NCBI RefSeq assembly: GCF_006345805.1
Contig: NC_042997.1
Location: forward strand, 119,846,001-119,910,000
Direction: 5' to 3'
From: Octopus sinensis
Lineage: Eukaryota
DNA: 64,000 nt
This document shows, piece after piece, positions 41 through 62,757 of the stretch. Within the stretch, counting starts at the first letter, position 1. The number at the start of each line of letters is the position of its first letter. The translations under genes and the position numbers were made by a program. Under the pieces are notes generated by a model. It was not told the origin of the DNA, searched no databases, and was given only the letters and a program-made list of their open reading frames with translations.

Positions 41-101
41 TTATCACTGACGAAGAGAAGGGTGTTATGAATTAACTCTGAAATCGGGTCTGATATGATA
101 A
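41..101 (+). ncRNA. Minimal type I hammerhead ribozyme (canonical core)
   Basis: TTATCA-CTGACGA-AGAG..CTCT-GAAA-TCGG(GT)CTGA-TA-TGATAA. Stem I is a perfect 6 bp; homologous to 62454-62509 with compensatory stem II change. Confidence 0.85.
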
Positions 102-399
102 TAACGGAATTTTTTAGAAATTTCTGTCGGCTTTATTCGTGATGCGTGTTTATAGTGATGACTTATATGGTTATGGGCGATGTGTCTAGTTTCGGCATAT
201 TTGGCATTAGAATTTTTTTAATTTTGTCCTTGTTTATGAGTTGTATATCTATATGTATTTATATATATATATATATAAACACAAAAACACACACACTAAG
301 ATACATATATACGTACATTTCTCAATATATATATATATATATATGTTGGTTCCCCCCCACAAATAATGTTTTTTTTTTTCATATTTCTTTTATGTTTCA

Positions 400-940
400 A
401 AATTACGATATAAACAATGTTTTTTTAAATCTAAAAATATACTCCCTTGCATATCCTGTAATGCTGTGCCATCTGCCTGGTAGATTGCAATACCCTCTTC
501 CAAAATTCACATGTCTGTGACGTAAAATATTCCTTTACGACTGTTCTTGCCACCTCACCAGGATTCATATTATTTCCGTCCAAAGAATTTTTAAGACTGC
601 GGAATAAATGTTAATGAGATGGGCCAATGTCCAGTGAATATGGTGGATGGGGCATCGTTCCCCATTGAAGCTTCTCCAGCTTTTGGAATATCATCCTTGC
701 TGTATGTGGCCGAACAACATCCTGATGGACGAACACCTTTCGTTTTGAACCCAAAGATGACCATTTTCCTTCTAGCGCCGACTTCCGCCGCTCAAGATCC
801 TCGCAGTAGATCTCCTTCGCTATCGTTTGGTTTGGGTTTGAATGTTCGAAATGGACTAAACCTTTCATATCCACTGTTGCCTTTATTAAATTGAAAAAGC
901 AAAATATGCTGAATATGCCCCACTGTCACTTCCATTATAG
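400..940 (-). mobile_element. Decayed mariner (DD34D) transposase fragment
   Basis: ORF 611-874 contains HQDVVRPHTA and PHPPYSLDIGPS, matching mariner HDNARPH and HPPYSPDLAPSD motifs. Confidence 0.8.
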
Positions 941-1094
941 CTTTGAAAAGTAACTGTTAAAACTAAACAGTACTCTTCTAAAACTTATCATTACCTGCAT
1001 TTATAGCAAGTTGATGCAATAAGTTTATCCCGTTCTTCTCCGACGCTTAGTTCATGGAATTTCAAAGACCGCATTATTTCTAGGATGATCCAAT

Positions 1095-1450
1095 ATAGGA
1101 GTGGCAGTGTGGTAAGTAGATTGCTTACCAACCACATGGTTCCGGGTTCAGTCCCACTGCATGGCACCTTGGGCAAGCGTCTTCTACTATAGTCTCGGGC
1201 CGACCAAAGCCTTGTGAGTGGATTTGGTAGATGGAATCTGAATGAAGCCTGTCATATATATATATATATATATATATATATAATATATATATATAATGGT
1301 GTGTTTAAGTCCACGTAACTTAGTGGTACGTCAAAAAAGACGGATAGACTAAGTAATAGGCTTACGAAATTACGTTCTGGGATCGATTTGCTCGACTAAG
1401 GCGGTGCTCCAGCATCGCCTCAGTCAAATGACTGAAACAAGTAAAAGAGT
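1095..1450 (+). mobile_element. tRNA-derived cephalopod-type SINE (family A) with internal (TA)n
   Basis: Head GGAGTGGCAGTGTGGTAAG..GGTTCAGTCCC (A/B box-like), ends ACTGAAACAAGTAAAAGAGT. Further copies at 11025-11412 and 13950-15460. Confidence 0.8.
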
Positions 1451-1534
1451 AAAGAGTGTGTGTGTGTGTGTATAATATATATATATATATATATATATAT
1501 ATATATATGCATATATATATATATATATATATTA

Positions 1535-1767
1535 TATAATTTTGGAAAATTATCAATTACACCAAGTAGTCTTCGGCATGTAAAAGCCCATTCGAGGAAA
1601 ATTTAAGTAATACTAAGCAATAAGGGTTTAGCAACGAGTTGCCTTACCACATACCGAATTTAGAAATCCCCCCTTTTTTGTAGAAGAATAGCTATAATAA
1701 CCTTTGACTGCTATTTCTAAATTCGGTATGTGGTAAGGCAACTCGTTGCTAACCTTATTGCTTAGTA
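1535..1767. repeat. Fold-back solo terminus of a (TA)n-embedded element
   Basis: 1611-1668 is the reverse complement of about 1712-1767. Start resembles the terminus at 60845-61032. Confidence 0.75.
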
Positions 1768-1800
1768 TATATATATATATAATATATATATTATATATTC

Positions 1801-1847
1801 AGGCCTGCTGATGAATACGTAAGTATGAATCACTGTGATACAGGTCT
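1801..1847 (+). ncRNA. Hammerhead-like motif lacking one A of GAAA
   Basis: AGGCCTG-CTGATGA-ATAC(GTAA)GTAT-GAA-TCAC(T)GTGA-TA-CAGGTCT; all three stems pair. Confidence 0.6.
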
Positions 1848-2273
1848 ATATTTTTTAAATGTCTTACTTTGAAAAATTGCATTCGGTGGATTAGTAATAT
1901 TTTTTTGTAGAAATGACTAATTGTCCCTCTAGCGTGTGGCATGTATGTATAATGCTCTCTGGCATGTATGTATAATGCCCTCTATATATAAATTAATATG
2001 TTCAATAAGAAATAATTATTTTCGAATTTATTCTCTTATGAGGTTTTCACGCTATCTCCCTGACAAGTTCTTGTTAAGTTTTCCTTATTAAGTAGTTGTC
2101 CTTAATTGCTAAATTTTTATTCCGAAAAAAAACTTTTCTTTCCCGAAATGCAATTCGTAAAAGTTTGCCATTAACAGGATGTAATATATGTAAACTCACC
2201 CATGTGCTTCGTTGATGTTGATCAGTTAGCTGATCGGCTTAAGCGGGCAGGGTCGTTTATTTATGATACATTC

Positions 2274-2320
2274 AGGCCTGCTGATGAATACGTAAGTATG
2301 AATCACTGTGATACAGGTCT
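2274..2320 (+). ncRNA. Hammerhead-like motif lacking one A of GAAA (second copy)
   Basis: Identical to 1801-1847. Confidence 0.6.
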
Positions 2321-60530: not shown

Positions 60531-60661
60531 TTATTGGCAATTGCGTAATTATATATAGAGAAACACACATAATATTTTCACTTATTTTTCAAAATCTAAC
60601 CACATGGGAATTGTTGACGATTTTCTTCCTCTTCCTTCCTCTTCTATTGGACTATACTCTA

Positions 60662-60694
60662 TTTCTGAAGAAGAGCTCTGCTCGAAACTTCAAA
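60662..60694 (+). ncRNA. Minimal hammerhead, stem III decayed
   Basis: TTT-CTGAAGA-a-GAGC(TCT)GCTC-GAAA-CT-TC-AAA; more decayed family copy inverted at about 10650-10830. Confidence 0.55.
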
Positions 60695-61135
60695 CCATTG
60701 CCCTTCCCTGAAACTCTGCTAATACTTTACATGTACCACGTTCTTGCGTTGTAGTATTTTTGTGTTTATACTTCGTGTTTTGGGTTTTTTGCTATATATA
60801 TATATATATATATATATATATATATATATATATATGTTTATATATATAATTTCAACAATTGAGGGTAAAATTAATTAATTATTAATCAATTTCACCAAGT
60901 ATTCAGTATGCAAAGGGACCATTTAAGGCGAATTCAAATTATTACATTATATAAAAGGGCTTAGTAAAATAAATTACTTTGCCACATACTGAACTCATTA
61001 GAAATAGTAGCTAAAAAAACCTTTTTAGAACTATTTCTAATACTTAAAGAAAATCTCTCTCATATAGTGTTTGCTCAATTCAACTCACGAAAGTATGGGG
61101 GTAAAGACATTAAAAAATCAAATGCAAAGGTTATT

Positions 61136-61187
61136 TGAGAACGTACGTTTCTAGATTAGTCAACTCGACATTTCTATCATCAGCTCA
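61136..61187 (-). ncRNA. Type I hammerhead (canonical core)
   Basis: TGAG-CTGATGA-TAGA..GTC(GAGTT)GAC..TCTA-GAAA-CGTACG-TT-CTCA. Confidence 0.85.
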
Positions 61188-61294
61188 GAACTCCTTGGTT
61201 TGGATTTGAAAATCTCTCTCATATAGTGTTTGCTCAATTCAACTCACGAAAGTATGGGGGTAAAGACTTTAAAAAATCAAATGCAAAGGTTATT

Positions 61295-61346
61295 TGAGAA
61301 CGTACGTTTCTAGATTAGTCAACTCGACATTTCTATCATCAGCTCA
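61295..61346 (-). ncRNA. Type I hammerhead (tandem copy, +159 nt)
   Basis: Identical to 61136-61187. Confidence 0.85.
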
Positions 61347-61756
61347 GAACTCCTTGGTTTGGATTTGAAAACACTGAAAGTGGGAGCATACCCTTTCGGC
61401 TTCTTATCGCTTCTGAAGATCTGCTCGAAACTAACAGTGCCAGCAAACTCAAAATATGCAAGCGAAGAGTTTCTGCTCTCCCCTTTCCACCAGCGTGGGT
61501 TAAAATCAGTAAACACTATGCTTTTTCGGTAAAATCCGAAGCATTAAATAGAGAGAGATGAATTATAATTTCAACAATTGAGGGTAAAATTAATTAATTA
61601 TTAATCAATTTCACCAAGTATTCAGTATTCAGTTCTAAAAAGGTTTTTTTAGCTACTATTTCTAATGAGTTCAGTATGTGGCAAAGTAATTTATTTTACT
61701 AAGCCCTTTTATATAATGTAATAATTTGTTTATATATATATATATATATATATATA

Positions 61757-62246
61757 TACAAACTTTAGAGGACTGACCACTAAAAGTGGACAGCCTATAT
61801 GCTAAACATAGACGTCAGATTGCCATTACCACGAAGAATGTGTTCTCAAGTGAAATTTCAGCAAAAAAACAAAATGTAAATCAAAGAAAGACAAATGAAA
61901 GTATAGGAAATAAAAAAACGATTACCTATGTACTAATTGGTTTCACTTGCTAATATTTACGTATATGGACACGCAAACACCTGCAAGATCATCAGGATAG
62001 TCTGCCGTTTACAAAACACAATTCCCAGTACTAGGTGCAGAAAGTTTGCTGAGATTTTACTTGAGAACACATCCTTCGTGTTAATGGTGATGGGACGTCT
62101 ATGTTTAGCATATAGGCTGTCCAGTTTTAGGGGTCAGTCCTCTAAATTTTGTATGTAAAATAAATTATAATCTTCGGAATTTTTTTAAATATGCTAAGCC
62201 ACTGGTTTTAATTGATTAATATCAATTTCTACCCATATTTAATTTC
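61757..62246. mobile_element. Non-coding element with 60 bp inverted repeat, tail and internal hammerhead
   Basis: 61757-61816 is the inverse of 62094-62154; tail resembles the inverse of 22681-22750. Confidence 0.7.
61926..62000 (-). ncRNA. Hammerhead with intact core and mismatched first pairs
   Basis: CTATc-CTGATGA-tCTTGC..GCAAGt-GAAA-CCAATTAG-TA-cATAG. Confidence 0.65.
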
Positions 62247-62433
62247 ATATATATATATATATATATATATATATATATATAATATATATATATATGTGTT
62301 GTATGAAAAATATATATGTATATGTTCATATATATAAATTTATATATATATAAATGTATATATATATATAATTATATATATATATATATATATATATATA
62401 TATATATATATATATATTATATATATATATATA

Positions 62434-62757
62434 TAATTCATAAATAAGGGCAAATCACTGACGAAGGGAGGGTTGTTATAAGCTAACCCTGAAATCGGTC
62501 CGATATGGTAATAATGGAATTTTTAGAAATGTCTGTCCAACTTTTTTAGAGTAGCGTGCGTATTGTGAAAACATTATATGGTTAATGGACAATATGTCCA
62601 ATTTTTCTGCATATTTGGCATTAGAAAGTTTTTCGTTTGCCCTTATTTATGAATTGTTTATAATTTTAACCTTTAAAGGTACTTTTAATATGCTGGCCAT
62701 TGATAACATTTATTTTGGAAAAGAATTTTTTTCGAAAAAATATTTATCCTAATTAGA
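62434..62757 (+). mobile_element. Small non-coding hammerhead element with ~20 bp inverted repeat and tail
   Basis: AATTCATAAATAAGGGCAAA / TTTGCCCTTATTTATGAATT; body homologous to 41-245. Confidence 0.75.
62454..62509 (+). ncRNA. Type I hammerhead (canonical core)
   Basis: ATCA-CTGACGA-AGGG..CCCT-GAAA-TCGG(T)CCGA-TA-TGGT. Confidence 0.82.

Follow-up and report, generated by a model that had tools for sequence, protein, structure and literature searches.

Minimal hammerhead ribozymes have been described in Penelope-like elements (PLEs), and a dimer model for them has been published (PMC4209133, PMC7229834, PMC11167929); their function has been called unclear (PMC8557442), and cleavage was dispensable in vitro (PMC11167929). 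Published totals are about 9,000 for Xenopus tropicalis (PMC4209133), and more than 6,000 motifs in 16 families for Acropora and up to 120,000 for axolotl (PMC7229834; 10.64898/2026.07.22.740005). Here we analyse 64,000 nt of Octopus sinensis DNA (contig NC_042997.1, positions 119,846,001 to 119,910,000; hereafter the window) from a 2.72-Gb assembly. The window has 35% GC, is rich in microsatellites, and was the subject of an original prediction, made from the letters alone, that listed 24 type I hammerheads. We consider it probable that minimal type I hammerheads lie here at the 3' ends of PLEs and at those of short non-coding units, which the same enzyme probably copies, and that, as their sequences predict, they would cut element RNA as paired (dimeric) ribozymes. 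The motif, its position and polarity, its copy numbers and four versions of one of its core pairs can be read directly from the DNA.

Hammerhead cores and chance controls

An Rfam scan of the window gave no family match at gathering score, and no hammerhead appeared among 150 of the 179 rows listed by E-value, the top rows being microsatellite artefacts; we therefore wrote our own type I descriptor. With a canonical core it matched the window nine times, against 0.31 matches per shuffle (100 local dinucleotide shuffles, here and for the strict form). The strict form, which accepts any Watson-Crick pair between core positions 3 and 8 and requires a perfect stem III palindrome, gave nine matches against a shuffle mean of 0.04 (maximum 1). 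A broader form, with stem III allowed up to 12 nt, gave 13 (12 listed sites and 30758+) against a mean of 0.26 (maximum 2), and none in the reversed sequence. The comparison with shuffled DNA proposed alongside the original prediction thus favours it, as shuffled counts are far lower. That the matches are chance products of AT-rich repetitive DNA would agree with the absence of hammerheads from the Rfam results and with the background of the loose tier (intact core alone), which is 1.4 per shuffle. Against this stand the shuffle comparisons for the two stricter forms, genome-wide pattern counts far above their reversed controls, and covariation; chance is already refuted for most sites, with 57152, 61995 and 30758 excepted, and as a general explanation we give it a negligible probability.

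Covariation was examined in seven relatives of sites 47 and 62458, aligned by sequence alone. Compensatory changes occur in all three helices, 95% of helix cells are paired and five pairs are changed on both sides, whereas slid controls reach 31-44%; as the seven sequences are related, we take this as support and attach no probability to it. A 7-nt stem III initially assigned to these two sites was replaced, since the family copies favour 11-12 nt.

Sites are named by core start (position 3) and strand, and sites 41, 22871, 57148, 60662 and 62454 of the original prediction correspond to 47+, 22900-, 57152+, 60665+ and 62458+. The type I core (N3 UGA N N8 A, GAAA and H17, in type I order) is intact at 14 of the 24 listed sites, damaged at eight and failing at two. 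Twelve sites combine an intact core with all three helices (47+, 5829+, 22900-, 35272+, 39265-, 41213-, 42704-, 51285-, 56635+, 61183-, 61342- and 62458+), and these include all five copies that had been singled out as intact (41, 35266, 41137, 61136 and 62454); at 14258- and 61995- the core is intact and the helices are imperfect. Nine of the intact cores have perfect, short palindromic stems III. The 3:8 pair is A3-U8 at 22900- and U3-A8 at 42704-, 51285- and 56635+.

A third of the listed sites are damaged fossils. Cores 1808+ and 2281+, which belong to a 475-nt family, lack one A of GAAA that is kept in 96 of the 100 family matches listed first. The others are 2933- (U4C), 15139+ (C3U, without stem III), 21808- (C3U), 28911- (3:8 mismatch), 34555- (G8A) and 35665- (A9G, shortened stem III). 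Site 57152+ is doubtful, with the first core segment, a long stem II hairpin (z -4.4) and a broken stem III, and no second copy of it was found in the genome DNA examined. At 60665+ the core and stem II are present, but stems I and III do not close after GAAA as in type I, so that this site is not type I. The original prediction is largely right as an observation: about twenty of its sites are real or decayed copies, 12 of them intact and two with intact cores but poor helices. The 60665+ family (60590-60770 on the + strand, 10670-10836 on the - strand, with a core also near 61413) was aligned for 12 copies; the core halves flank a short stem II without type I stems, and position 4 is often C.

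By blastn, the 24 sites fall into 16 families, two of which have upstream sequence in common. Because in five pairs both members belong to a single insertion, as its two ends or as two of its units, there are about 19 events, not 24; the description of the sites as many unrelated families holds with these two adjustments.

Four versions of the 3:8 core pair

Positions 3 and 8 form a tertiary pair in the active conformation of the core (PMC3884650). We found this pair as C-G, U-A, A-U (site 22871 of the original prediction) or, outside the window, G-C in separate high-copy families, and each version is found downstream of a GIY-YIG frame. Genome-wide counts of a pattern with short stem II and 6-nt stem III, compared with reversed controls and with gap ranges that differ slightly between the C-G and U-A versions, were 6,122 against 1,481 for C3-G8, 21,762 against 3,627 for U3-A8 and 5,072 against 2,947 for A3-U8. 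Among short-stem motifs U3-A8 thus exceeds C3-G8 about 4 to 1 (excess 18,100 against 4,600). For G3-C8, a generic pattern in which stem III was AC..GT showed no excess (1,410 against 1,646 in the control); the G3-C8 family has another palindrome.

The A3-U8 pair is kept in 93 of 100 listed family matches and, in a second subfamily, in 59 of 68 matches; position 7 and loop II are variable. Its core lies about 300 nt after the GIY-YIG stop both in the window and at a further locus (L114), GIY-YIG is found upstream on the same strand at 10 of 24 further A3-U8 loci, and the GIY-YIG protein of the A3-U8 element is 56% identical to that of the U3-A8 element of the window. The G3-C8 family has 2,104 matches; the pair is kept in 90 of 100 listed and in 23 of 30 loci that were selected through a motif lying upstream, and at two loci (L097 and L125) a GIY-YIG frame lies upstream of and collinear with the core. 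We had considered this family as a 200-nt solo unit, which was rejected when a microsatellite-like 3' region was found to join the core to the GIY-YIG frame. No canonical core was found in the four 3' regions checked.

Two further observations concern the G3-C8 element. About 20-45 nt upstream of the core, loci L116-L145 show a branch-point-like motif, a pyrimidine tract and an AG just before stem I, which recall the intron end beside helix I in the Drosophila virilis Penelope (PMC4209133). The 3' region of the element holds a (TACA)n tract, and trinucleotide microsatellites lie inside the 3' region of the PLE of the window (56060-56300 and 51620-51830); some simple repeats therefore travel within elements.

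Natural U3-A8 hammerheads have been published (PMC3088659, PMC4209133), and G3-C8 appears only as a mutant in the portions of PMC11167929 and PMC3884650 available. We found no report of natural A3-U8 or G3-C8 in a literature of incomplete coverage, so that novelty is provisional; nor did we find a publication on octopus hammerheads, and a 2026 paper on Octopus vulgaris repeats never uses the word 'ribozyme'. The new part is provisionally the four-way 3:8 series, a modest variant on a known phenomenon.

One core pair present in all four versions across high-copy families would mean that cutting is under selection. It might instead be that the A3-U8 and G3-C8 cores are dead, each having acquired its pair by chance drift in a single founder and then reached high copy number by hitch-hiking. 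Copy number does reflect a few founders rather than independent events, in a doubly mutated core chance will fairly often produce a Watson-Crick pair, and mismatched copies make up 7-13% of those listed. In the A3-U8 and G3-C8 motifs, however, stems I and II, the palindrome of stem III and the rest of the core are all intact, and the A3-U8 pair is retained in subfamilies with different GIY-YIG proteins (56-90% local identity), different loops II and different bases at position 7; we regard drift of dead cores as very unlikely. If Penelope lineages have independently fixed all four versions, active A3-U8 and G3-C8 ribozymes included, this would be evidence at population scale for a requirement of self-cleavage in the PLE life cycle, and scans based on CUGANGA would miss a large share of animal hammerheads. 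The natural 3:8 series is also a ready test set for the role of these ribozymes in transposition.

Carrier elements and genome-wide density

The hammerheads and their carriers are distributed over the window as follows.

47-95 (+): intact C3-G8 hammerhead with a 12-nt near-palindromic stem III, in a non-coding retrozyme-like unit of ~0.5 kb
1785-2600 (+): 475-nt tandem retrozyme-like repeat of two units, cores 1808 and 2281; 512 matches, tandem and inverted
2904-2933 (-): minimal hammerhead with U4C; intact relatives exist
5829-5858 (+): intact core, 6-nt palindromic stem III, mismatched first pairs in stems I and II
14183-15225 (no single strand): decayed inverted hammerhead pair (14258-, 15139+) on an old PLE-type remnant; 14281-14888 matches 29206-29784, in another inverted-pair region, at the DNA level
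21731-21808 (-): hammerhead with long stem II and C3U; two relatives are C3-G8
22876-22900 (-): A3-U8 minimal hammerhead, stem II of 2 bp; GIY-YIG remnant 23196-23279, frame end 289 nt before
28866-30220 (no single strand): decayed inverted pair (28911- and an unlisted partner near 30130+), GIY-YIG-like remnant 29295-29495
34436-35391 (no single strand): inverted pair, 34555- (G8A) and 35272+ (intact)
35636-35665 (-): decayed 3' stub of the U3-A8 PLE family
38850-42155 (-): two 5'-truncated PLE ends, with GIY-YIG-like remains 39857-40234 and 41841-42155 (PF01541 match at E 0.036 only) upstream of hammerheads 39265 and 41213
42673-42704 (-): U3-A8 hammerhead; GIY-YIG remnant 43082-43312 on the opposite strand
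51124-56768 (+): near full-length Neptune/Nematis-type PLE with U3-A8 hammerheads 56635+ and 51285-
57152-57240 (+): doubtful motif, first core segment, long stem II, broken stem III
60665-60700 (+): member of an abundant family with core and stem II, type I stems I and III absent
61049-61371 (-): 159-nt tandem duplication in which both hammerheads (61183, 61342) are intact and are predicted to fold as a double hammerhead
61931-61995 (-): intact core, imperfect helices; flanked by two inverted arms (61753-61865, 62045-62157)
62458-62505 (+): intact hammerhead, site-47 family

The PLE at 51124-56768 encodes reverse transcriptase (RT) and GIY-YIG in one frame (54077-55912; RVT_1 E 2.7e-8, GIY-YIG E 7e-5); its N-terminal part lies in another frame (53707-54210), which places a frameshift near the start of the coding region. 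A CxxC linker joins RT and GIY-YIG; the assignment to the Neptune/Nematis type, of which this linker is one trait, is provisional. The U3-A8 hammerhead lies 723 nt after the stop, and its motif has 1,684 exact copies genome-wide against none in the control. An inverted, 5'-truncated copy of the PLE 3' part occupies 1.8 kb (51124-52967). Further traits of endonuclease-containing (EN+) PLEs are present, a tail and a microsatellite target. A query with the PLE 3' end matched no data set recorded as RNA; four contig sets of guessed RNA type cover PLE and motif, with ends and strand not resolvable; contigs of three runs skip 150 nt of the 3' region (56332-56483), with ends that are not splice-like on the + strand.

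That the motifs mark the 3' ends of PLEs and retrozyme-like units is a known, published association (Cervera 2014, 2020). Sites 22900, 28911, 39265, 41213, 51285 and 56635 are preceded on their own strand by GIY-YIG or RT remains, and most sites lacking them have an inverted or tandem architecture. A terminal-repeat location in an RT and GIY-YIG element is supported for U3-A8, A3-U8, G3-C8 and one C3-G8 family. A (TA)5+ tract is found within 350 nt downstream of 20 of the 24 sites, compared with 23% of random points, and upstream of six; this placement is what would be expected if 3' ends were copied into (TA)n and underwent truncation and inversion, as described for the PLEs of PMC8557442. 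Tandem units that are non-coding and carry a single type I hammerhead comprise the 475-nt family, the 159-nt pair and, in part, the site-47 family, which has 1,849 first-look candidate copies in the genome; three queries found no PLE protein beside 30 of its copies. The original prediction had further supposed that PLE-dependent ribozyme elements make up much of the featureless DNA. Upstream GIY-YIG or RT remains and the (TA)n polarity bear out the PLE link, but a generous hand-drawn footprint of the elements covers at most 28% of the window, and 21% of the rest without the large PLE. Elsewhere in the genome, locus L174:2779-5300 holds a very young retrozyme-like array, in which units of 535 nt (four direct, two inverted) carry six hammerheads of identical sequence.

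We estimated density from 99 stretches of 10 kb (989.7 kb) at round coordinates on the 22 largest contigs, a sample that is not strictly random. The strict tier gave 23 matches, or 23/Mb (bootstrap 10-39/Mb), six of them from one array, and a smaller first sample (590 kb) gave 15/Mb; resampling of the strict counts reaches nine per 64 kb with a probability of 0.007. The broader tier gave 36 matches and 3.3 in shuffles, which is 33/Mb net (22-55) and extrapolates to about 90,000 motifs in the genome (60,000-150,000). Broader-tier density falls from 203/Mb in the window to 80/Mb in the surrounding 200 kb and 33/Mb in the genome sample, and the window overstates genome density about sixfold because it was chosen for density. 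The expectation of very high density genome-wide is thus upheld as tens of thousands of motifs, though not at the level of the window. For published animals, totals over genome sizes correspond to roughly 4-13/Mb. The octopus may be several times denser, though descriptors differ, and the density claim alone is a quantitative extension of published work; from other animals, too, high counts and numerous families per genome have been reported. Non-C-G cores account for 12 of the 36 broader-tier matches, and standard descriptors and Rfam therefore undercount animal hammerheads. We hold only tentatively, and at somewhat less than even odds, that the hammerhead population of the octopus ranks among the densest recorded and that its Penelope lineages independently fixed all four Watson-Crick 3:8 versions, including active A3-U8 and G3-C8 ribozymes unreported in nature.

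Several other features lie near these elements. A single open frame for a beta-1,3-galactosyltransferase (PF01762; 30904-32130, - strand) is 73-97% identical to Octopus proteins, with 83% for one from Octopus bimaculoides, and the weak hammerhead candidate at 30758-30835 (+) lies just beyond its 3' end on the other strand. A mariner-type transposase fragment (PF01359) is found at 37551-38155 and 42169-42572, the partial copy being 96.5% identical, and a 710-nt tandem duplication (96.5%; 49649-51164) abuts the left end of the PLE. A repeat resembling a short interspersed element has several copies, some in tandem (44971-45281 and 48328-48934). Fragments at 18885-19363 and 59412-59686, without a Pfam match, presumably resemble the C-terminal endonuclease region of an R2/Dong-type long interspersed element.

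Proposed mechanism and comparison with known systems

Cutting, dimer formation and the use of a helper by the non-coding units are what we infer from these patterns. Source elements would be transcribed, and paired hammerheads would cut at position 17 through their palindromic helix III, which could pair between tandem copies or between two RNAs, perhaps aided by the PLE protein as in Anolis (PMC11167929). The PLE RT/GIY-YIG enzyme would then prime in (TA)n and copy from the RNA 3' end, and what 5' truncation leaves would be mainly stubs with a hammerhead, in many cases accompanied by a second copy in inverted orientation. Most genomic copies would be inert, decaying fossils, with cleavage selected only in source elements, where single core changes would be compensated by the partner base. 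Unconstrained cofolding of two A3-U8 or two U3-A8 motifs predicts the double-hammerhead form, and in the 159-nt tandem this form lies 1.8 kcal/mol above the minimum, compared with 16.8 for two monomers. A constrained fold of the 475-nt dimer was set aside, as it forces a U-U pair.

Several points weigh against cutting by paired ribozymes. Monomer folds are mostly no stabler than shuffles, and 35272 prefers another fold; the A3-U8 stem II has only 2 bp, in AT-rich DNA, although 2-bp stems II are known among hammerheads; inverted pairs lie on opposite strands and are unable to dimerise in one transcript; and families 47, 5829, 21808, 57152 and 61995 show no protein link in the data examined. Minimal PLE hammerheads cut poorly in vitro (PMC4209133), and insertion by the Anolis PLE did not need cleavage (PMC11167929). 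The fold might instead be maintained because the PLE enzyme uses it as a signal for protein binding or template recognition, with cutting weak or incidental. In the Anolis PLE cleavage needs protein, is dispensable for insertion in vitro and left no reads ending at the cut site in the reported data (PMC11167929), and Naiads thrive without canonical motifs (PMC8557442). A binding signal, however, would not obviously need the 3:8 pair of the active conformation (PMC3884650) to stay Watson-Crick through four versions, and we consider a role in binding rather unlikely, while cleavage by paired hammerheads probably accounts for the conserved fold.

The octopus motifs resemble the minimal PLE hammerheads of PMC4209133 in their type I order, short palindromic helix III and extra base after position 9, and also in that one genome holds many families, most copies are solo, pairs occur on opposite strands, the U3-A8 variant is present and the dimer model applies. 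They differ in that octopus is absent from the supplement matches of that study, and in that the only core covariation in its available text is U3-A8, whereas A3-U8 and G3-C8 families occur here. The octopus retrozyme-like units (475 nt, 159 nt and about 0.5 kb) share with metazoan non-long-terminal-repeat retrozymes (PMC7229834; 10.64898/2026.07.22.740005) non-coding tandem units, one type I hammerhead each and a proposed PLE dependence; unlike those retrozymes, for which circular RNA and cleavage were demonstrated, they are known as sequences, they carry PLE-type inversions, and no cephalopod is treated in the parts of those sources available. The PLE of the window agrees with Neptune/Nematis EN+ PLEs (PMC8557442) in RT, CxxC linker, C-terminal GIY-YIG, inverted 5'-truncated copy, tail, (TA)n targets and 3' hammerhead, and differs in its frameshift and in that no 5' direct pseudo-long terminal repeat was seen. 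As for the 3:8 pair, U3-A8 is natural elsewhere (PMC3088659), and a C3G/G8C double mutant of the Anolis PLE partly rescues cleavage (PMC11167929). G3-C8 is a laboratory mutant in PMC11167929, and A3-U8 is absent from the available text of that paper and of PMC3088659, whereas in the octopus both are fixed in natural families that number thousands of copies.

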